In this document: positions 18,145 through 63,621 of the stretch, in pieces
Numbering within the stretch: the first letter of the stretch is position 1
How the letters are laid out: the number at the start of each line of letters is the position of its first letter
Assembly (NCBI RefSeq): GCF_032191835.1
Contig: NC_083228.1
Location: forward strand, 115,506,001 to 115,570,000
Direction: 5' to 3'
Origin: Heteronotia binoei
Lineage: Eukaryota
Length of the DNA: 64,000 nucleotides
Made by a program: the position numbers and the translations under genes
Notes under the pieces: generated by a model
Told to the model about the DNA's origin: nothing
Seen by the model: only the letters and a program-made list of their open reading frames with translations
Database searches by the model: none

Positions 18145-18435
18145 TTGTGCAATCCACAAAGAGAATAACGGCAATTATAGGCAGAGAAATCCAAAGCACA
18201 AGGCTTTCCGTGAAAACCACCCTCCGAACAACCAACAAACTCACCAAACAATTCAACAATTACAAAAGCATATATTAGTTCATGCTAGACCATACAATTA
18301 GTCCTTAGCAAAACAGGGAATGTGTTCACCAAGAATCAATCCAGTCTTTATAGCAATCATTGCTCAGTTCATTCCAAGGAATCCTGGTGAAATAATTGTC
18401 CAATTGATCAATGTCTCTCAATATATGCAGGGATG

Positions 18436-18465
18436 GAGGGCGGGGCGACGCGGCAAATGGCGGAC
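18436..18465 (+). promoter_or_regulatory. Putative L1 internal promoter start (GC box plus YY1-like site)
   Basis: GGGCGGGG at 18438-18445 and AAATGGCGG at 18455-18463, at the element's 5' end. Confidence 0.5.
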
Positions 18466-18543
18466 GCCTGAAGGAGCCGCTCTCTCTTAACTGTCCCTTC
18501 GCGCCTCCCCCGCTCCTTCCAAACGCTCCGTTTTCGCCCGGGC

Positions 18544-19524
18544 ATGGGCAGAAGAAACGTCGGAACTCTCAGGGCAGCCAGGAAAACTTCTAAAACGCGG
18601 CAACAGGTACTCACCTTCCCCCCCGCGACTCCTGAACCTCCCGCCCCCTCGCCTGGGCCTCCTCTCTTGCCAGATAAAATGGCGTCCGATGCTTCTCCCG
18701 CTATTGAGGAAGACGCATTGCTTACCTCCCAGACTTTCCATTCAGCAATGGCCCGGTTAGAGGAGACCATTGGGGAAGCTATTTCTAAAGCTACTGCTCC
18801 CATCTACTCCGAACTTAAAAAGATAAATGAAACTCTAGCTGCTGTCACTCAAACTGCAGACGCAGCCTTTGAATTAGCTACCAATGCCCAAGAAGCAGTA
18901 GAGAGCCTTCAACGCTCCGACTTGTGGGTGCATGAGAAAGTTTTATACCTGGATAACAAACTGAGGGCGGCAAATTTGAAACTTCGAGGCCTGCCCGAAC
19001 AGGCCGAAGAAAATCAAGAGATTAAAACCTTTATAGCGACCTGGCTAGCCTCTGCTCTCCACCTCCATGATGGTGTTGCCCCTCTTATTGACTCTGCCTA
19101 CCGCCTTGGGGCCCTTCGACCTAACTCAAAAGATTTTCCACGAGACATTTTAGTCACAATCCCAGACTCCAGGACCCGGATTGCAATCTTCCAAAAAGCC
19201 CGATCTGATGAAGGCCTACTCTACGAAGAGAAGAAAATTCTTGTTTTGGCCGACCTTTCCCCCGAGACTCTGCAGCACAGAAAGGACATGAAACCTATTC
19301 TCAACTTGCTTGCTTCACACAAGATCCGTTTCCGCTGGTCTTCTCCCACCCAAATTTTGGTGGTCCACCAGGGTCTCCGCTTAACTGCCTCTGACTTTAC
19401 CTCTGGGTGTAATCTTCTCAAGCACCTCCACATTGATCCGCCTCCAGCCACTGACCCAGACTTGGCTAATGATCTTCAACCACCCAACAAGACATTCTTT
19501 TCCAGATCAAGAAGACGACGTTGA
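18544..19524 (+). CDS. L1 ORF1p (coiled coil, RRM, CTD; Transposase_22-like), 326 aa, uninterrupted
   Basis: Coiled coil followed by LDNKLRAANLKLRGLPE, IDSAYRLG..PRDILV, DLSPETLQHRK and IRFRWSSP motifs. Confidence 0.9.
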   Translation: MGRRNVGTLRAARKTSKTRQQVLTFPPATPEPPAPSPGPPLLPDKMASDASPAIEEDALLTSQTFHSAMARLEETIGEAISKATAPIYSELKKINETLAAVTQTADAAFELATNAQEAVESLQRSDLWVHEKVLYLDNKLRAANLKLRGLPEQAEENQEIKTFIATWLASALHLHDGVAPLIDSAYRLGALRPNSKDFPRDILVTIPDSRTRIAIFQKARSDEGLLYEEKKILVLADLSPETLQHRKDMKPILNLLASHKIRFRWSSPTQILVVHQGLRLTASDFTSGCNLLKHLHIDPPPATDPDLANDLQPPNKTFFSRSRRRR

Positions 19525-19766
19525 GTATGCTCTAAGTCATAAACCTGCCTGTTTGAGTGTTTCAATGTTCATATTGTGTCAACTGCAAGTGCCATGCCCT
19601 GGCTCTACTTTTACGTTTCGGAAGGGAGCGGGGGGAGGAAGAATTTTCCCACATTTAACTCCACTTAGTTGGGACAGTTGAGAGTTCTCTCCTTCTAGCC
19701 CTCCTACCCTGGTTAGTGTTCTACTAATATAAGCCAAAATTTTTTCATTGTTCTCTTTTAGAGTCA

Positions 19767-20315
19767 ATGAATAGTCTAGATAGATTTATGTTTTTTGTAT
19801 TGTTTTTTGTTTATCTGTTTAAAAGGGAAAGCCCTTTGGTGGCATTGTCCACGAAACTGATTGATCACCTTGTTAACTTTGTCCACTTTTGGTTAACCTT
19901 GTTTGTTTGCAACTGTGACCCATATGCCAAATGGTCCTCTTCTATTATACAATGGTACCTGACTCCTTTGCTTGCATTTCAGGAAAGTATTACGTGGTTT
20001 GGTTCGTTACACAAAGTGTATTTTTATGACCCAGCCTTCTGGTTCATGTTTTTATTTCTAATAGTTGTTGACTTAAGCACCTGTTCGTTTTTACTTATTC
20101 CTATCTTGAACTTAATCAGTCTTACCTTTATGGACACTGTTCTTACTTTACTAAAGATATATGTAATTGCAATACAAAGTTGGTTGTTAGTTCCTGGTCT
20201 ATATTTCCTAAACTTGATTCTGGAGGAATTTATTCTTTGGCCATCAGGCCATTTAGTGTTGGCTAAGCTTGAAAACTTCTCATTTTTTGACCGTTCTTTG
20301 TCATGTCGGACTTAA
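19767..20315 (+). CDS. Hypothetical 182-aa hydrophobic ORF in the L1 inter-ORF spacer
   Basis: Frame is open from 19728 to 20315 in T/A-rich sequence and overlaps the ORF2 ATG by 13 nt. No homolog recognised. Confidence 0.4.
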   Translation: MNSLDRFMFFVLFFVYLFKRESPLVALSTKLIDHLVNFVHFWLTLFVCNCDPYAKWSSSIIQWYLTPLLAFQESITWFGSLHKVYFYDPAFWFMFLFLIVVDLSTCSFLLIPILNLISLTFMDTVLTLLKIYVIAIQSWLLVPGLYFLNLILEEFILWPSGHLVLAKLENFSFFDRSLSCRT

Positions 20316-23300
20316 AATTAATCTCTCTTAACTGTAGAGGCCTTAATAATGTTATTAAGGCCAAGAGACTATCCTCCGCTCTAACAAAACTACAACCCGA
20401 CCTTCTTTTTTTACAGGAAACTCATATTAAAAAGACAAATTTTAATATTCTTCATTCAAAATGGTTCCAAACACAGTTTCTAGCTCCCGGTTCATCGAAA
20501 TCACGTGGAGTCGCTATTGTGCTATCTAAGAGAACAAGATTTGTTCCTATGGCCCAGGAAGTAGATCCCCAGGGAAGATATATTTTCGTTAAAGGCATGC
20601 TTAATGACTCTTTATTCACTTTGGTCTCCCTATACGCTCCTAATACTGCACAAATTACCTTTGTTAAATCTACCCTACAGAAGCTTGCCCTTTTCCAAGA
20701 GGGGGAGGTGGTTATAGGCGGTGATTTCAACCAGATAATTGACCCTATTTGGGACAGATCCTTTAAATCACACACCCCCGCAATTGCCCCTTCCGCACCT
20801 CTTCAAACTATTTTCCAAAACCACAATTTATGTGACATTTGGAGGATTCGCAACCCAGGCGTTAAAGATTATACATACTTCTCTGCAGTCCATAATATCT
20901 TCACAAGAATAGACTATTTCCTTACTTCCCCTTCCCTACTGAACCAAATTTCTCACACTAATATAGGCCTCAGAACTCTCTCCGACCACGCCTGGTTGGA
21001 ATGCACTTTAAATGCTGCCCCCCAAGATAAACCTTGCTACAACTGGTCGTTGAACAGATCACTTCTTTTGAATAAAGAGTTCTGTACACAGATTGAAAAA
21101 GAGATTAATATTTATTTTGAGAATAACTCCGATTGTGGGGTTTCTCCTAACATCGTCTGGGACGCAATGAAAGCAGTCTTACGGGGTAAATGCATCTCTT
21201 TGAATTCGGCCTACAAAAAAAGGAAATTAGAACTCAGTCAACATTTACTAGATAACATCAAACTGTTAGAACAGAAACACAAACAGACTTGTTCCAAAAA
21301 GATCTACCATAAACTCTTACTCGAACGGAAAAAGCTCGAGTTACTAGATACTACTACCATCAAGAAGAACCTTCTCTTTTTAAAGCAACGTTACTGGTTC
21401 AACCATCCCCGTTCATTGAAACTTCTATCTTGGAAACTTAGAAAAGAATTAGGGGAGCGACACATAAATGTCATCTCAGACTCCACAGGCAAAAGGCACT
21501 CCTCAAATAAGAAAATCATAGATGTTTTTCACAACTATTTTCAAAAACTATATACCTCAACCAATCCTTCTCCTCTCTTAATAGATCGCCTTTTACAGGA
21601 TCAACCCGTTCTTAATCGCCTATCACAAGACCATCAACACTTTTTAGAGTCGCCCATTTCTCCTACAGAGGTGCTTGATGCCATCAAATCTTCTAAACCC
21701 AACAAAACACCTGGTCGAGACGGTCTGCCTTCAGAATTTTATAAGAAATTTGGCTCGTCCCTAACTCCTCATTTTACCTCGATTTGCAATCTAGTGCTGG
21801 ACTCTGGCCTTATGCCCCCTTCTTGGTCCCAAGCAAAAATAATCCTTATACCCAAAAAAGAGAAAGACCCCTTATCTACTAAGTCCTATCGCCCTATTTC
21901 TTTACTCAATAATGACTATAAACTATTTACATCTATTTTAACAGCCAGACTAAACAAGATCATTGGTTCCTATATTCATATAAACCAATTGGGATTTATC
22001 CCAAATCGGGATATTACCGACAACACGAGTCAAAGTATTAACTTGATCCAGTACTGCAACTTTCAGAAATTCGAGTCCTGTATTTTGGCCCTAGACATCG
22101 AAAAAGCCTTCGATAGCGTGGAACCGCTTTTTCTCCATAAGGTTCTTCACCATATGGGTTTCGGTCCGAAATTTAGGAAGGTCATCAATTCCCTTTATTT
22201 AGACCCATCCGCTTTTCTGCAAATTAATGGCCAACATTCTCCTGTGTTTCGACTTGAGAGGGGGACACGTCAAGGTTGTCCCCTCTCCCCAATCCTATTT
22301 GCACTGGCTATTGAACCCCTTGCTAATTTAATTCGTCTGTCTCCTGAGATCCCTGGAATCTCCGTTCAAGGCTCTTCATTCAAAATCAGCTTATTTGCTG
22401 ACGATATACTCCTATATATATCCAATCCATTGCAATCCCTGAATGCCATTTCTACCATCCTGGACAGTTTTGGGACGCTTTCTGGACTCCATATTAACCA
22501 CTCTAAATCTATTCTTTACCCAATCAATGTTTCTCTTGATCTGAGAAATGAAATAACCACCAATTACTCCTTTCACTGGGTTACCGATAGCTGGTCATAC
22601 TTAGGATTAAAAATCCCCGTAAACCTTTCCAATTTGTTGAAGTCCAATTATACTGCCACTCTCTCAGACATTTCCACCAATTTGAAACAGTGGGACAAAC
22701 TGCAACTGTCTTGGATGGAAAGAATCCATACCATTAAATCTTTTATTTTTCCACGTTTACTATACTTATTTCGGGCTCTTCCCATCGAGATACCTCCAAG
22801 AATGCTAAACTCTTGGCAACAAACTCTGTCTGCCTTCATCTGGAAATACAAAAAAGCCCGAATTAAACTCTCAACTATCTGCCGCTCTAAAGCTAAAGGC
22901 GGCCTGGCGGTCCCCGATATCACTCGCTATTACAAAGCTGCCATTCTCTCTCAAATGATCAAGATCCTATACCAACATCCCCCCCCCCCCACCTTGGTCC
23001 CTTCTTGAAGAGGCCCATTTTACTCCCCTCAAATACTATGAGCTTTTATGGCTCAAAAAGTCAGACCGCCCTCCATGGCATTTTGTGAACCCATTTCTAA
23101 AAGCACTTCTTTCGGTATGAGACTCAGAACGCTCTTTTCTTGCCCCAGGTTTTTCCATCATCTCCTCATTTATGGGCCAAAAATGGTTTCCCCCGGCCCA
23201 GCTCCCCTCCTCTTTTAGAACCTGGCGCGACTCCTTGATGGTTTTCCTTTTTAACCTTCTTTCTTCCTCCAGACAAATTTTACCTAAAGACAAGCTTGAT

Positions 23301-24155
23301 CAAAAATTATCAAACCCATCACCTTGGTTTCAATATTTCCAAATTAGACATTTACTTCAGGATTCTCAATTGAAATCGTCGCTTTCCCGCCCAACAACTG
23401 ACTTTGAATACCTGATTCTCCACCTACAAGATTCTGAAAAATCAAAGGGTCTCATTTCACAAATATATCGTGTTCTCTTATCCAAACTGGAATCTTCACT
23501 TCCTTCATACACAAATTCATGGCATAAAGACTGTGGGTCCACGCTCTCTCCAGACCAATAGGAGGCCATATGGGAAAGTGAAATTCTGCACTCTAACGTT
23601 ATAAACATATCACAACAGAATTTCAAACTAATGGCCCGCTGGTATCTTACTCCCATCCAACTTTCACATATGATTATTTCGACTTCCCCAGACTGCTGGA
23701 GAGACTGTGGTCTCAAAGCTTCATATATCCATTGTTGGTGGGAGTGCCCTAAGTTAAGACCCTTTTGGTCTTCAATTTGTTCTCATCTTTCAACTTTACT
23801 GGGAATCACAATCCCCGAAGACCCTAAGATAATATTTCTTAATCACTGGCCTGGTTCCAAACTGTCCTCCTCCAAAAGGTCCCTAATGGCTAAACTCCTA
23901 ACGGCAGCAAAAGCAACGGTAGCACAATCCTGGAAAAACCTCAACAGTCCATCTCTCGACACCTGGCTCTTAAAAGTCTGGGACCACATTGCTATGGACA
24001 AGATCCAGGCTTCGCTCGACACTACTGACCCCTACCAAGCCTATTCTAAATATATAGCGATTTGGCTCCCTATCCTGGAAAAAATTGATAGCGACCCATT
24101 CTACATCAATTCCCATAACAAAAGTAAACTTTACAAAGATTTCTTGTGGTTATAA
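20303..24155 (+). pseudogene. L1 ORF2 (APE endonuclease, RT, CCHC), ~1283 aa when repaired; three lesions
   Basis: SLNCRGL, LQETH, GGDFN, RIDYF, LDIEKAFD, GTRQGCPLSP, LFADD and CWRDC..HCWWEC motifs. Lesions: +1 frameshift in the C12 run (22979-22990), TGA at 23118-23120, TAG at 23559-23561. Confidence 0.95.
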
Positions 24156-25025
24156 ATCTTCTTATAATACTGTACTTTGTAATCTTAACGTTGGTTTATC
24201 CCTCCTCTTCTTTCTTTTTTCTTTTTATTTATTTTAAGCTATATGGTTTTTGTTGGTTACGATGTATTGTTTACTGCCAAATGTTTTCCTCGCCTTTTTT
24301 AAGTTGCATTTGATTGGTCAAATTCATCAAGTTACGTGTATTCTTTGTATTACCTTATGTTAAGGTTGTATAAAAATTTTTTCTAATATATCTAGCAGGA
24401 AAATGCATTTAGATGTAACAAAATTACACAGATAATGTATCAAGACATAGACTAAACAACTGCATTAGATTTCTTTGCAGTATGATGCAGGTTTAAAAAA
24501 CCCCTCTTAAAACCTGCAAAATAATATTACAACGACAATAAATACCTCACAAACAATTGTCTAATAGGCTCAGTTACCCCCCAGGAAAAGGGCAGAAAGA
24601 TATCATTTATGCAGAGGAAACATTTGATAAAATTACTATAACAAAAAAAAATTAAAAATCACATCTGTCATATTTAATAGCAGACAATAATGCAAGTAAA
24701 TTGATTGTGTGGCTTATAATGTTACTTTTAATGCTTTATATATAAGCTTCTTTCACTCTTTGGAGCACTGAGAAAGGACTCCTCTCACACAGAGCAAGCA
24801 AGGCGTCTTGCTTCGTAACTGCGGGGGTGGGGGAATATTAGAAGGCCTCAGTCCTTCCTGATTTCTATTTCTGTATAAGAGTATTGCAGCATGACCAACA
24901 GTGTCAAAGCAAGCATGCAAACCCACAGGAAATCACCCACAAGGTATGTATGAATAGTCACAGACTACAAACTCTCTGGTCTTTTAAAAAAGAACTTCGA
25001 ATCTTTTAAACAGGGACCAAATTTA

Positions 25026-42425: not shown

Positions 42426-43597
42426 TTTTTATTTCTATCCCGCCCTCCCCGCCAAGGCAGGCTCAGGGCGGCTCACAACATAAAATACATTATACATCAG
42501 TTATACTTATAAAATCATGGTTAAAACAATTACAGATTATTAAAATTAACATTAACAATATGGTGCTATAAACATTAGGTCTTCAGTAGAATTCAGTAAC
42601 TAAAAGCATTTTCAGCGGCACTTCCTAGCTTGTCATTAGTTGAAGGCTATCTTGAAAAGGTGGGACTTACAGGCCCTACGGAATTGATCTAAGCATCGTA
42701 GGGCCCGCACCTCCTCTGGGAGTTGATTCCACAGCAGTGGGGCTGCGACAGAGAAGGCCCGATCCCGGGTGGCCTTCAATCTGGCTTCCCTTGGCCCAGG
42801 GACATTCAGCTGGTTTTTTCCAGCTGACCTCAGCGCTCTCTGGGGCTCATATGGGGAGAGACGGTCCCTCAGGTAGGCAGGTCCTCGGCCATATAGGGCT
42901 TTAAAGGTGATAACCAGCACTTTGTAGCGAACTCGATATACCACTGGCAGCCAGTGCAGTCCGCGTAGCCTCGGCTGTATGTGCTCCCACCTTGGGAGCC
43001 CCAGCAACAGCCTAGCCGCCGCGTTCTGCACCAGCTGCAGTCGCCGAGTTCGGCACAAGGGCAGCCCCATGTAGAGGGTGTTGCAGTAGTCCAGTCTCGA
43101 GGTGACCGTAGCATGGATCACCATTGCTAGGTCACGGCGCTCCAGGAAGGGGGCCAACTGCTTCGCCCGTCGAAGATGAAAGAACGCGGACTTGGCAGCG
43201 GCTGCTATCTGTGCCTCCATTGATAATGAAGGCTCCAGAAGAACCCCCAAGCTCCTGACCTTATGGGCTGCTTTCAGCAGCACACTGTCAAAGACCGGCA
43301 AGGGGATTTCCCTTCCCAGGGCACCGCAACCCAAGCAAAGGACCTCTGTCTTCGTTGGATTCAACTTCAGCCTGCTCAGTCTGAGCCAACCTGCCACGGC
43401 TTGCAGTGCTAGGTCCAGGTTTTCTGGGACCTGTGAGGTAGGTGGGGCTGAAAGAGCTGCTCTTGAGAGAACAGCTCTGAGGGCATTGTAACTGACCCAA
43501 GTTCACCCAGCAGCTGCATATGGAAGAGTGGGGAATCAACCCTGGTTCTCCACATTAGAGTCCACCACTTTTACCCATTACATTAAACTGGCTCTCA
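42282..43597 (-). mobile_element. Squam3-like SINE split by L2 (pieces 42282-42348 and 43432-43597)
   Basis: ...CCACAATAAACACC | CTGTGAGGTAGG... rejoin into the SINE consensus. Confidence 0.75.
42349..43431 (-). mobile_element. 5'-truncated L2 LINE with an open 253-aa ORF2 C-terminus and (ATT)n tail
   Basis: LKLNPTKTE, SRLDYCN, LQLVQNAAAR, LHWLP and DRAFSVAAP..WN motifs; (AAT)n at ~42349-42425. Confidence 0.92.
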
Positions 43598-50039: not shown

Positions 50040-52752
50040 TAAATTATTAGTAAACTAGCTAAATCTGATTAGCGAGGGGGGAGGGGTTGGAAGTTTAACA
50101 TCTGAAATAAGGTGGTGAGTGAGGACATATCCATGTTGGTTGACATGTAGAGGGGTCAATCGGAATTGCTCGCCTCTGTCATTGCTGTTATGTAATGCCA
50201 GGTCCATAAATAATAAGACCTCAATCCTTAGGGAGTTCCTGATTAAGCAGAATATGGACCTGGCTTGCGTGACCGAGTCCTGGGTGCGAGATGGGGAGAC
50301 TGTAGCTCTCCCCCAGATGGCTCCCCCAGGATACTCGGTCTTTCACCAATCACGGACTAGCAGGTGGGGGGGAGGGGTGGTGCTATTCATATGAGAGAAT
50401 TACTCTTTCTGGGCTCTCCTGACCCAACGATCAATGGTATAGAATGTGCCGGTCTGGCGTGGGATGTGGGGGACGGGTTGGCGATCTGGTTGGTGTACCA
50501 TCCGCCTAACGCACCAGCCAGCGCCTTACTATCCCTGATGGAGGCGGTAACAGAATGGGAATTGGAGTACCCAAGGCTTTTGATCCTGGGCGATTTCAAT
50601 GTCCATGCCGGTGATGTGACCTCCAATCAGGCGATGGCCCTAGTGTCATCCATGGTAACACTGGGACTCTCCCAATTTTTTACAACACCCACTCACCAGG
50701 CGGGGCACATGTTAGATTTGGTCTTTGTGGCCAGGGTTTTGGTGGATGGTATTACTGCAGAGGCGGTGCAATGGTTGGACCACTTTGCCCTCAAGGCTCG
50801 TGTGGATGCTCCACCCCAAGCCCGTTTGGCTCGCCCATGGAGTCTGATGGACCCTGAGTGGCTCCAAATGGCTCTGCGGGATCCCTGGCAATTTCCTTGA
50901 TGATCTGGTTGAGTCTTGGCATGGCCAACTATCCAGGGCCATCAATGAGATCACACTTCGACACCCTCAGCGCCCTCGTGTTAAGCTCTGTGGTATACCC
51001 CGGAGCTGCGAAAGCTGAAACAAGGGCTCAGACGGTTAGAGAGGCAAGTGGCGGCGTACTTGAGACGAAGAGACTAGAACATCTTATAGAGAGTTTATGA
51101 GGTCCTATGAGATGGCAGTCAAAGCCACAAAGAAGAATTACTTTGCAACCAAGATTGCGTCTGCAAATTCGCGCGCAGCACAATTGTTTAGGATAATTCA
51201 GAATCTTACAACACAGCCTCAAGGCAGGCCAAATGTTAGTGAATTAGACATTGGCTGAGAGGCTTTTGCGAAATTTTTTGCAGATAAAATCGCATCGCTC
51301 CACCACGACCTTCCCGCCACATTGGATACAGTACAAGAACTCGAGGTTCCGTGCCTGTATTCTGGTTCAGTTCTGGATCACTTCGACACCCTTAGCTTGG
51401 AGGAAGTTGACAGAATCCTCTCTACTGTACGCCCAACAACTTGAGATTTGGACCCATGTCCCTCCTGGCTTATTAAATCTTGCCAGAGGGAACTGAGATG
51501 TCCTATACGGGACATCGTAAATAGATCCCACTCAGAGCTGTCCCAGAGGCACTCGCTAGATTGTGGGGTGCCACAGGGGGCAGTGCTCTCTCCGATGTTG
51601 TTTAACATTTACATGCGACCCCTTGGCCAGATTGCCCAGAGGTCCGGGCTTGGGTGTCATCAATATGCTGATGACACCCAGCTCTATCTACTAATTGATG
51701 GTCGGCCTGACTGCGCCCCAAAAAATCTGGACCTGGTGCTGCAAGCCGTATGTTGGCTCAGGCTGAGTAGGTTGAAGTTGAATCCAACAAAGACAGAGGT
51801 CCTTCACCTGAGTCGGGGCGGTCTGAGAAGGGAAATTCCCCTTTCCAGTTTTTGACGGTGCGCCATTGAAAGTGGTGAGCAAGGTCAAGAGCTTGGGGGT
51901 ACTACTGGAGCCTTCCTTGTTAATAGAGGCCCAGATAGCAGCCACTGCTAAATCCGCTTTTTTTCACCTTAGGCGGGCGAGGCAGCTGGCTCCCTTCCTA
52001 GAGCGTGACGACTTGGCAACAGTGATCCATGCAACGGTCAGCTCAAGATTGGATTACTGTAATGCTCTCTACATGGAGCTGCCCTTGTACCGAACCTGGA
52101 AACTGCAGCTAGTGCAGAATGCAGCAGCCGGACTGTTACTAGGGCTCCCGAAGTGGGAGCACATACAGCCGAAGCTGCGCGACCTGCACTGGCTGCCAAT
52201 TGTATACCAGATTCGTTACAAAGTGCTGGTTATTACCTTTAAAGCCCTATATGGCCGAGGACCTGCCTACCTTAGGGACCGTCTCTTCCCATATGTGCCC
52301 CAGAGAGTACTGAGATCAGGAGCACAAAATCTTTTGACAATCCCCAGGCCGAAGGAGGCCAAATTGAAGACAACAAGAGAAAGGGCCTTTTCGATCGCAA
52401 CTCCACACTGGTGGAACCAACTACCAGATAAAGTGTGAGCCCTGTGGAGCCTTGCACAATTCCGTAGGGCCTGCAAGACCACTCTCTTTAAGCTGGTCTC
52501 TCATAATGTGGATCCTAGCCTATCATATCTGGTCATCATAAATTGCAAGAGGAGAACATCTAGAATATAGCACCTGGAAATGTTAGAATCTAATTAAATT
52601 GATGGTTTTAATTATAATGTTTTTAATGTGATAGCAAATATCGTTAACTGTATATTGTTGGATATAATGTTTTATTATTGTAACCTGTTTTTATGCCATA
52701 TTTTGTGAGCCGCCCTGAGCCTGCTAGGGCGGGATATAAATAAAATATTATT
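50040..52752 (+). mobile_element. L2 LINE: APE, RT with a large internal deletion near 51535, C-terminus and 3' tail
   Basis: LCNARSINNK, CVTESW, ILGDFN, DPCPSWLIK..GVPQGAVLSP, YADDTQLY, SRLDYCN motifs; tail GAGCCGCCCTGAGCC..ATAAATAAAATATTATT. Confidence 0.92.
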
Positions 52753-60478: not shown

Positions 60479-63400
60479 CCCCCTCTCATGGACTGCTGCC
60501 TTGACATGGTGAGAGGGCTTGCACAGTTCAGTGAGGCTGTGGGCTATGCCATGCAGGGCCACCCAGGATGGACAGGCCACAGCTGAGAACCCAGACAAAA
60601 TGCGATCCATTGGAGAAGGAAATGGCAAACCACTCCAGTATCCTTGCCAAGAAAACCCCGTGGACAGTAACAAAAGGCTAAAAGATATGGCGCTGGAAGA
60701 TGAGCCCCTCAGGTGAGAAGGTGCCCAATATGTTACTGGAGAAGAGCGGAGGGCAAGCCCAAGTAACTACAGAAAGAGTGAAGCGCTGGGCCAAAGCTGA
60801 AAGGACGCTCAGCTGTGGATGCGTCTGATGGTAAAAGAAAAGTCCGATGCCACAAAGAAAAATATTGCATTGGAATGTGGAATGTAAGATCTATGAATCA
60901 AGGTAAGCTGGATGTAGTCAAACAAGAGATGGCAAGACTGAATATCAACATCTTGGCAATCAGTGAACTAAAATGGATGAGAATGGGTGAATTTAACTCA
61001 GAGGATCACTACATCTATTATTGTGGGCAAGAGTCCTGTAGAAGAAATGGTGTGGCCTTTATAGTTAACAAGAGAGTGAGGAAGGCAGTAATGGGATACA
61101 GTCTCAAAAATGATAGAATGATCTCCGTATCCAAGGCAAACCATTCAATATCACAGTAATCCAAGTCTATGCCCCAACCACTGATGCAGAAGAGGCTGAA
61201 GTAGACCAGTTCTATGAAGATCTACAACACCTTCTAGAATTAACACACAAAAAAGATGTCCTCTTCATCATAGGGGATTGGAATGCCAAAGTAGGAAGTC
61301 AAAAGGTAATCAGAACAACTGACAAGTTTGGCCTTTGAGAACAAAATGAAGCTGGGCAAAAGCTAATAGAGTTTTGTCAAGAGAACAAACTGGTCATAAC
61401 GAACACCCTCTTCCAACAACCTAAAAGGCGACTCTACACCTGGACATCACCTGATGGGCAACACAGAAATCAGATTGATTATATACTCTGCAGTCAAAAA
61501 TGGAGAAGCTCCTTACAGTCAGCAAAAACAAGACCTGGAGCTGACTGCGGCTCAGATCATGAGCTACTCATCGCAAAATTCAGGCTTAAACTGAAGAAAA
61601 CTGGGGAAGCCATTAGGCCATTCAGGTTTGATCTTGATCACATCCCTTATGAATATGCAGTAGAAGTGAAGAATAGGTTTAAGGAACCAGAGTTGATAGA
61701 CAGAGTGCCTGAAGAACTATGGACAGAGGTTTGTGACAGAAGGCAGCAATCAGCACCATCCCAAAGAAAAAGAAATGCAAAAAAGCAAAGTGGCTGTCTG
61801 ATGTGGCTTTACAAATAGCTGAGGAAAGAAGGAAAGTGAAAGGCAAAGGTGAAAAGGAAAAAATCACCCAGCTGAATGCAGATTTTCAGAGAACAGCAAG
61901 GAGAGATAAGGAGGCCTTTTTGAAGGAACAATGCAAAGCAATAGAGGAAAATAACAGAATGGGAAGGACAAGAGATCTCTTCAAGAAAATTGGAGAAATC
62001 AAGGGAACGTTTTGTGCAAAGATGGCCATGATAAAGGACAAAAAATTATACAAGAAGGATCTCAGTGTCCTTGACAAACATGACGATGAAATCGATGACC
62101 TCGAGCCAGACATCCTGGAGTGTGAAATCAAATGGGCCTTAGAAAGCATTACTAACAACAAAGCGAGTGGAGATGATGGTATCCCAATTGAGCTTTTCAA
62201 AGTCCTAAAAGATGATGCTGTTAAAGTGATGCACACATTATGTCAACAAATTTGGAAAACGCTACAGTGGCCACAGGATTGGAAAAGATCAGTTTATATT
62301 CCAATCCCAAAGAAGGGTAATGCCAAAGAATGTTCAAACTATTGCACCATTGTACTCATTTCATATGCCAGCAAGGTCATGTTAAAGATCCTACAAGCTA
62401 GGCTTCAGCAGTATGTAGATCGGGAACTACCAGAAGTTCAAGTTGGGTTTTGGAGAGGTAGAGGAACTAGAGATCAAATTGCCAACATTCGCTGGATTAT
62501 GGAGAAAGCACGGGAGTATCAGAAAAACGTCTATTTCTGTTTCATTGACTATGCTAAAGCCTTAGATTTTGTGGATCACAACAAACTGTGGCAAGTCCTT
62601 AAAGAGATGGGCGTACCAGACCACCTCACGTGTCTCCTGAGAAACTTGTATAAGAGTCAAGAAGCAACAGTCAGAATGGGATATGGAACAACTGATTGGT
62701 TTAGAATAGGAAAAGGAGTTTGACAAGGATGTACATTGTTACCCTGCTTACTTAATTTATATGCAGAGTACATCATGCGAAATGTTGGCCTGGATGAAGC
62801 AGAAGCCGAAATTAAGATTGCCGGGAAAAACATCAACAACCTCAGATATGCAGATGATACCACTCTAATGGCAGAAAATGAAGAAGACCTAAAGAACCTC
62901 TTGTTGAGGGTGAAAGAGGAGAGCACAAAAGTAGACTTGAAACTCAACATCAAAAAAACTAAGATCATGGCATCTGGCCCCATCACACCTTGGCAAATAG
63001 AAGGGGAAGACATGGAAGTAGTGACAGACTTCACATTTCTGGAATCCAAGATCACAGCAGATGGCGACTGTAGCCATGAAATTAAAAGACGTTTGCTCTT
63101 TGGGAGTCAGCTATGGTGAACCAGGCAGTATAACAAAAAGTAGAGACATCACCCTGCCAACAAAAGTCGATATAGTCAAAGTGATGGTATTCCCAGTAGT
63201 AATGTATGGCTGTGAGCGCTGGACCATAAGGAAGGCCGAGCGCAGAAGAATAGATGCATTTGAGATGTGGTGTTGGAGAAGTATCTTGAGAGTCCCTTGG
63301 ACTGCAAGAAGACCAAATCAGCTAGTCCTAAGAGAAATCAACCCTGACTGTTCCCTGGAAGGTCAGATGCTGAAGCTAAAGCTCAAATACTTTGGCCACC

Positions 63401-63621
63401 AAATTAGAAGGGAACACTCACTGGAAAAGATCCTGATGCTGGGAAAGACAGAACGCAAAAGAAGAAGGGGACGGCAAAAGATGAGATGGCTGGACAGTGT
63501 TACTGATGTAACAAACACGAATTTGAGCAGACTTCGGAGGATGGTGGAAGACAGGAGGGCCTGGCGTGACTTTGTCCATGGGGTCGCAAAGAGTCTGACT
63601 TGACTGTGCGACTGAACAAGC
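60479..63621 (+). mobile_element. Near full-length BovB (RTE) LINE, decayed
   Basis: BovB 5' GGAGAAGGAAATGGCAAACCACTCCAGTATCCTTGCC; APE (WNVRSMN, QVYAPT, GDWNAKVG) and RT (FIDYAKA, LRYADD); CTGAAC tail; 9-bp TSD AGCAGGCAA at 60470-60478 and 63622-63630. Several stops and frameshifts. Confidence 0.95.

Follow-up and report, generated by a model that had tools for sequence, protein, structure and literature searches.

A spacer reading frame in an L1 element of Heteronotia binoei that appears to be selected for openness rather than for its protein

Introduction

How an L1 element synthesizes ORF2 protein when a long spacer intervenes, and why such spacers are retained despite inhibiting retrotransposition in culture, are described as open questions in PMC4072516 and PMC5381506. 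The long-IGR vertebrate L1s (anole clade 2, frog and fish) have spacers of 257–1032 nt, which are treated as non-coding with a predicted IRES in the part of Boissinot and Sookdeo (2016; PMC5381506) used here; in that part the terms 'additional ORF' and 'transmembrane' had no occurrences (0 each). A search of titles and abstract openings, with subscription papers and Repbase annotations outside its scope, gave no paper describing a long ORF that is conserved in the spacer of an L1.

The stretch of DNA analysed here (the window) comprises 64 000 nucleotides of Heteronotia binoei (contig NC_083228.1, positions 115,506,001–115,570,000, forward strand) and contains an L1 with a long open frame between ORF1 and ORF2. 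A first-pass annotation had read this frame as a candidate third gene and offered three readings: a membrane or envelope-like protein, expression from a spliced subgenomic RNA, or a ribosome relay to ORF2. The question is what keeps the frame open.

Materials and methods

Copies of the element were collected by a DNA search (40 matches, 30 retrieved) and by an ORF1 search (138 matches, from which 40 more were taken at 70–83% identity). The latter set was chosen blind to the spacer. The resulting 70 loci included 68 with a recognisable spacer-ORF start, 65 of which also had the ORF2 start. The sets used for codon models exclude broken copies, two recombinants and (first set) distant lineages. 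Another 20 loci were reached via ORF2, and 40 distant L1 loci were examined, both regions being scored in 37.

Results

The L1 element and its parts

The features of the element, in window coordinates, are as follows.

18431..24388, plus strand: full-length L1 (LINE-1) copy of ~5.96 kb, the ends being set by a second copy (99.1% match over 5960 nt)
18434..18543, plus strand: short GC-rich 5′ UTR (GC 69%), at the start of which homology among 26 aligned copies begins
18544..19524, plus strand: ORF1, 326 aa, under purifying selection (dN/dS 0.119), stop codon at 19522–19524
19525..19766, plus strand: non-coding leader of 242 nt (203–248 nt in most copies) that contains conserved blocks as well as a number of short uORFs lacking conservation
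19620..19710, plus strand: tentative predicted long stem from single-sequence folds, a purine-rich arm paired with a pyrimidine-rich arm, differing among lineages
19745..19770, plus strand: predicted conserved hairpin with the AUG of the spacer ORF in its 3′ arm
19767..20315, plus strand: spacer ORF (putative relay ORF), 182 aa, in frame +1 relative to ORF2, with its stop 13 nt inside ORF2
20303..24155, plus strand: ORF2 (endonuclease, reverse transcriptase and C-terminal domain), dN/dS 0.115 over the first 280 codons
24156..24388, plus strand: T-rich 3′ UTR (51% T)

The ORF1 start is most likely at 18544, an MG start being common to all aligned lineages and to the Gekko kuhli homologues. Homologues of ORF1 showed 37–44% identity (39–44% for the named ones, from Gekko kuhli), and identity to the ORF1s of other L1 loci, including one with a PF02994 match, was 29–36%; in Pfam, ORF1 gave a sub-threshold Tnp_22_dsRBD match alone (E 0.07). 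ORF2 matched PF03372 (Exo_endo_phos, E 2e-15) and PF00078 (RVT_1, E 2e-37). It is broken in the window copy by a frameshift at a C run near 22980 and by a stop at 23559–23561. Neither a clear poly(A) tail nor a target-site duplication was found at the ends of the copy. The ORF1–ORF2 spacer measures 778 nt and, unlike that of a plain bicistronic L1, is not purely non-coding, since it holds an apparently selected open frame.

A tiny conserved uORF of four codons was noted in the 5′ UTR (18457–18471); the motif under it presumably resembles a YY1 site. Elsewhere in the window, 557–1384 was read by eye from the translation as an A-rich 3′ ORF2 segment from another L1 family, and we take the fragments at 42636–43502, 50361–52438 and 61737–63603 to resemble CR1/L2-type and RTE/BovB-type LINEs.

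The spacer frame in the window copy and across the genome

The long frame is real: from stop to stop it covers 19728–20315 (195 codons plus TAA), and its ATG at 19767 opens a product of 182 aa. The other two plus-strand frames are rich in stops, as had been noted (21 and 13 across the 791-nt stretch). Of 5000 mononucleotide shuffles none produced a frame of at least 195 codons, and of 5000 dinucleotide shuffles two did; an ATG-started frame of at least 182 codons appeared in 1 of 5000 shuffles. The TAA had been said to overlap the ORF2 ATG; the two ORFs do overlap, by 13 nt, but the codons themselves do not, the TAA lying 11–13 nt beyond the first base of the ORF2 ATG.

Among the 65 copies the spacer frame was open to within −12 to +19 nt of the ORF2 AUG in 50 (25 of 27 from the DNA search and 25 of 38 from the ORF1 search). 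By comparison, 45 of 65 copies had no stop in the first 180 codons of ORF2, and 58 of 65 had none in the last 180 codons of ORF1; because ORF1 and ORF2 stretches of equal length are broken too, breakage of the spacer frame looks like decay after insertion. The start was ATG in 65 of 68 copies, with A at +4 in all 68. Relative to the ORF2 AUG, the 50 intact frames ended at +13 (39 copies), +4 (four), −12 (three), +19 (two), −3 (one) and +8 (one), so that the stop lay past the AUG in 46. This position has the geometry of termination–reinitiation (within ~20–30 nt of the ORF2 AUG and out of frame), although the fixed +13 stop is not independent evidence because it is supplied by conserved Leu-Lys codons of ORF2 itself. 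The ATG-to-ATG distance was 2 modulo 3 in 51 of 65 copies, with shared lengths of 476, 479, 482, 521, 524, 536 and 671, and intact spacer ORFs measured 467–671 nt (154–227 aa).

The lineages that keep the frame open include some with ORF1 just 65–77% identical. The 20 loci reached via ORF2 added two more lineages with an intact frame, one with ORF1 at 65%; the rest were truncated or broken. As judged from the copies compared, the spacer ORF is a trait of an entire clade within L1. Net indels were multiples of three in 20 of 20 pairs (eight with gaps), as the first-pass annotation had anticipated, but this holds by construction and was not counted as evidence because the pairs were intact copies.

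Two further observations concern individual copies. In an abundant young family (L088, L093, L096, L108 and L119) a T run ~25 nt before ORF2 slips often, and all three resulting frames stop within −12 to +13 of the ORF2 AUG. In L025, L095 and L097 other elements are inserted in the spacer; the spacer ORF downstream is still intact in L095 and L097.

Stops are excluded while amino acids drift

Likelihood codon models on the same 25 copies gave dN/dS values of 0.98 for the spacer ORF, 0.115 for ORF2 and 0.119 for ORF1, and the spacer-ORF value in the 14 copies of a second, distant set was 0.975. With a 64-codon model, fitted to 26 intact copies, the value was 1.12 and did not differ from 1. This model put the exchange rate to stops at 0.00 in the spacer-ORF frame (lnL gain 50.5), as against 1.03 and 1.04 in the remaining two frames, the low rate being favoured by the use of intact copies alone (26 of 68). 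The intact copies carry ~3 substitutions per site over the tree with no stop fixed in the spacer frame, whereas the other frames hold 3–24 stops. The tree dN of the spacer ORF was 3.16, compared with a dS of 3.4–3.9 in ORF1 and ORF2, and identities at its codon positions 1, 2 and 3 (0.64, 0.63 and 0.65) equalled that at ORF2 third positions (0.65). The frame is thus open across subfamilies, as had been proposed as a check, but the purifying dN/dS below 1 that was to accompany it was not found (0.98–1.12).

The residues do not drift quite evenly. The first 25 codons were slower (dN/dS 0.66 and 0.68, not significant), codons 26–60 gave 1.42 (2dL 5.1, uncorrected), and a two-class site model gave 2dL 6.8 on 2 df in the spacer frame versus 0 and 1.3 in the other frames. 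The synonymous rate was also low across the first codons, as RNA constraint would give. Purifying selection had been suggested by Nei–Gojobori dN/dS values of 0.37–0.94 (mostly 0.5–0.65); these were rejected as an artefact of transition bias (kappa 5.5–6.6). On these codon models the spacer frame is selected for openness and not for its protein.

The hydrophobic product

The long apolar runs reported for the 182-aa product are present as described. So is their mundane cause, T-rich DNA, against which the first-pass annotation had itself cautioned: T makes up 39% of ORF2 fourfold sites and 51% of the 3′ UTR, and because the neighbouring L1 DNA is T-rich the runs follow from composition. The hydropathy selection coefficient of the spacer ORF was 0.0 and −0.08; dN/dS did not depend on the kind of swap (hydrophobic 1.12, polar 1.12, class-changing 1.08); the next reading frame was equally or more hydrophobic in 15 of 19 representatives; and predicted TM segments shift in place and number (one to three) among lineages. 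Most lineages have an N-terminal apolar run followed by basic residues (best 12-residue hydropathy 1.8–3.3 in 18 of 19), and T at codon position 2 was 0.47 in the spacer frame versus 0.37 and 0.40.

The product gave no match in 1.84 billion representative sequences, PDB sequences or Pfam, and an alignment of 17 spacer-ORF sequences gave none among 2866 candidates of similar length. The AlphaFold model suggested as a check had a pLDDT of 44 and was unusable.

Leader, hairpin and splicing

Identity in the leader peaked at 0.75–0.85, compared with ~0.6 in the ORF body, and seven of 37 leader indels were multiples of three. All 21 leaders examined carried uAUGs; the short uORFs that they open are unconserved, and their presence throughout makes plain scanning unlikely.

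The predicted hairpin at the AUG folded at −5.7 to −13.6 kcal/mol in 29 of 29 representatives, with z of −2.0 to −5.5 in 18 of 18. Its consensus fold has eight pairs, one with a compensatory change in eight of 30 sequences. The long stem at 19620–19710 is absent from the consensus fold and the whole-leader z was −0.41, so this stem is considered tentative. Rfam gave no matches (0), and no conservation peak was found in the 150 nt before ORF2 (identity 0.60–0.67).

A pyrimidine tract plus AG ahead of the ATG had been proposed as a splice acceptor. The tract is present in the window copy, but neither a conserved acceptor nor a spliced subgenomic RNA was borne out. In seven of 29 representatives neither candidate position has the AG, the tract is an arm of the hairpin, and no spliced retrocopy was found, with 0 of 39 matches broken at the candidate acceptor and 0 of 40 at the donor. 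A GT dinucleotide in early ORF1 (18600–18612) is kept in most lineages, and the lineage without it has a consensus-like donor ~20 nt downstream. L101 (640–660) was considered as a spliced copy and rejected: the first 84 codons of its ORF1 are joined out of frame to the ORF2 start at a short shared word, which is a microhomology deletion. Its ORF2 frame is otherwise open for 1302 codons.

Natural experiments and other L1s of the genome

In a multi-copy family (L075, L078, L089 and L090) ~27 late codons are read in another frame than in L077, L084 and L068, after which the reading returns to end at +13; from the alignment, these codons have been rewritten by a compensated frameshift. L016 and L023 are recombinants with the crossover inside the spacer ORF (5′ part nearest L007/L009, 3′ part nearest L026) and 45 extra codons, in frame.

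Five of the distant loci form a sister lineage (ORF1 at 46–52%) with a 1.2-kb spacer that holds a frame of 340–358 codons (for example L134:1467–2498, G000:C8:78121250-78124600; also L161–L198). This frame shows no similarity to the 182-aa spacer ORF. In 15 copies its dN/dS was 1.17, with 0–2 stops versus 5–18 in the other frames; its stop depletion was weaker (rate 0.39, lnL gain 2.1). In one subgroup the frame ends at +11 in frame +2; in another, owing to a 47-nt deletion, it ends at +4 in frame +1. Its likely AUG is also at the 3′ side of a hairpin, and owing to unstable G runs this AUG is in frame with the body of the frame in just four of 15 copies. A frameshifting deletion splits the frame in five copies, in which the new stop is 17, 17, 17, 0 and ~25 nt from the AUG of the onward frame; four of the five have an intact 1280-aa ORF2. 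Such a two-step relay is suggestive only, because at most two events are involved, each with a chance of ~1/4 by AUG density. This genome may hold two unrelated relay frames (~180 and ~340 codons), one even splittable into a two-step relay, if the sequence comparisons are read in this way.

In five spacer-less L1 loci ORF1 ends at +4 in frame +1, the same geometry as that of the spacer ORF. Twenty-seven more distant loci with spacers of 742–1870 nt (among L121–L150, L154 and L159) have no long frame reaching ORF2 (the longest, 82 codons, lies upstream), so a relay frame is not required by long spacers as such. A metagenome scan with ORF1 gave 387 pattern matches, none of which was confirmed.

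Discussion

The spacer ORF has a conserved AUG, excludes stops in one frame, carries neutral residues and ends within −12 to +19 of the ORF2 AUG. We consider it probable, from the pattern of substitution and the place of the stop, that selection maintains the open frame but leaves its amino acids free to change, and that the frame serves as a ribosome relay feeding ORF2 by termination–reinitiation; of the options in the first-pass annotation, this one fits, the frame being under selection across subfamilies. The cis preference of L1 is established (see also PMC4072516) and argues for synthesis of ORF2 from full-length RNA. On that RNA, ribosomes would reach the hairpin-buried AUG either by entering internally on the leader or by reinitiating once ORF1 and the short uORFs have been read. 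They would then cross ~540 nt of spacer ORF, terminate on the ORF2 start and, infrequently, reinitiate at its AUG. The small dose of ORF2p would be determined by the hairpin, and the hydrophobic peptide would be no more than a by-product. Translation of the spacer ORF, reinitiation and control of ORF2p dose are what we infer from the sequences.

Some observations sit uneasily with such a relay. The sister lineage fits less well, its AUG being in frame in four of 15 copies and its stop depletion weaker. A pure relay could shrink, yet intact copies stay at 467–671 nt; ribosome entry is hard to explain given the uAUGs in 21 of 21 leaders and A at +4 in 68 of 68 starts; and the slower first 25 codons keep an apolar run and basic residues, which a purely neutral frame need not do. 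A programmed frameshift into ORF2 was considered as another route and is unlikely: in most copies the ORF2 frame extends open only a few codons upstream of its ATG, and copies of the sister lineage reach ORF2 in two different frames.

The same first codons also speak for a product that matters, either as a low-constraint membrane peptide or through an N-terminal signal-anchor-like segment alone, bringing translating L1 RNA to the ER or acting in host conflict. The length held at 154–227 aa, the apolar run and basic residues, the mild site heterogeneity with faster codons 26–60 and the excess of T at codon position 2 all lean this way. We nevertheless regard it as unlikely. Mean dN/dS is ~1 whatever the class of swap, the value that the first-pass annotation had itself named as counting against a membrane or envelope-like protein; hydropathy is not selected, the other two frames are equally hydrophobic and TM segments vary and move. 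The C-terminal part has been rewritten by frameshift, the sister lineage has an unrelated frame, which is split in copies whose ORF2 is intact, and the low synonymous rate in the first codons is as expected from RNA constraint. Translation itself could matter otherwise, by shielding the spacer RNA from decay, by clearing structure or ORF1p from the ORF2 start, or by dampening ORF2 as an overlapping uORF. These ideas predict the same open frame with free amino acids, and a stop past the ORF2 AUG in 46 of 50 copies suits a damper, overlapping uORFs being usually repressive (PMC10275272). They too seem improbable to us, since repression or shielding could do without an open frame over the last 10–30 codons and yet every multi-copy lineage ends at −12 or later, the geometry is that of the ORF1–ORF2 coupling in spacer-less L1s, and removal of AUGs reduced activity in the megabat test (PMC4072516).

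Far less credible is a third gene expressed, like env-like accessory genes, from a spliced or internally started subgenomic RNA. The tract and AG of the window copy and the GT in early ORF1 common to most lineages would suit it; the acceptor AG is dispensed with in a quarter of representatives (7/29), the tract pairs with the AUG arm, no match breaks at acceptor or donor, and the sole copy in which the 5′ end meets ORF2 arose by a microhomology deletion. Chance, or inheritance of a once-open frame without present selection, would agree with a dN/dS of ~1 and with T-rich DNA, but we give it almost no credence: ~3 substitutions per site have fixed no stop while the other frames hold 3–24, shuffles gave such a frame in 2 of 5000, and a stop exchange rate of 0.00 in the 64-codon model contradicts it.

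The relay reading has partial parallels. Human L1 ORF2 is translated by unconventional termination–reinitiation (Alisch et al., 2006, as cited in PMC4091050, PMC5972666 and PMC4072516) and requires that ribosomes finish an upstream ORF, whatever its sequence (PMC4091050). The window L1 would share this dependence; in human L1 that ORF is ORF1, 63 nt away, whereas here a dedicated frame of ~160–230 codons with its own leader and AUG hairpin would serve. In megabat L1, which also has a long spacer persisting unexplained, small ORFs aid retrotransposition, and removing AUGs from the spacer cut it 3.3-fold (Yang et al., 2014; PMC4072516); unlike here, no conserved long frame is reported in the part of that paper used. 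Stop and restart codons within ~20 nt and out of frame are likewise found in the UAAUG coupling of SART1 and in viral TURBS (PMC5972666, PMC10275272). TURBS-dependent reinitiation (caliciviruses, influenza B) uses a conserved 18S-complementary motif in a stem upstream of the stop–start site. The upstream ORFs of SART1 and of the TURBS systems are genuine protein genes, and a defined RNA element is required, whereas no conserved element was seen upstream of ORF2 here (identity 0.64). With the long-IGR vertebrate L1s the element shares a short 5′ UTR, a size of ~6 kb, a spacer of several hundred nucleotides and a C/T-rich sense strand; unlike those L1s as described in PMC5381506, two thirds of its spacer is an apparently selected open frame. 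An extra small hydrophobic ORF in an envelope-less retroelement is also known as sORF2 of MDG1-group LTR retrotransposons (bioRxiv 10.1101/2025.03.14.642691), but that ORF encodes a functional fusogen-like protein, unlike the spacer ORF, which lacks amino-acid or hydropathy constraint.

It is an even call whether long-spacer L1 lineages have repeatedly evolved dedicated relay ORFs, that is, long frames with a hairpin-gated AUG selected solely for translation up to the ORF2 start. If they have, L1 would be functionally tricistronic in such lineages, the product of the middle cistron being irrelevant. A frame selected purely for openness would give a concrete, testable answer to the questions of how ORF2 is made across long spacers and why these persist. 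The spacer ORF would also be a clean case, provided by nature, in which translation is selected but the protein is not, and gene finders based on dN/dS would miss such frames.
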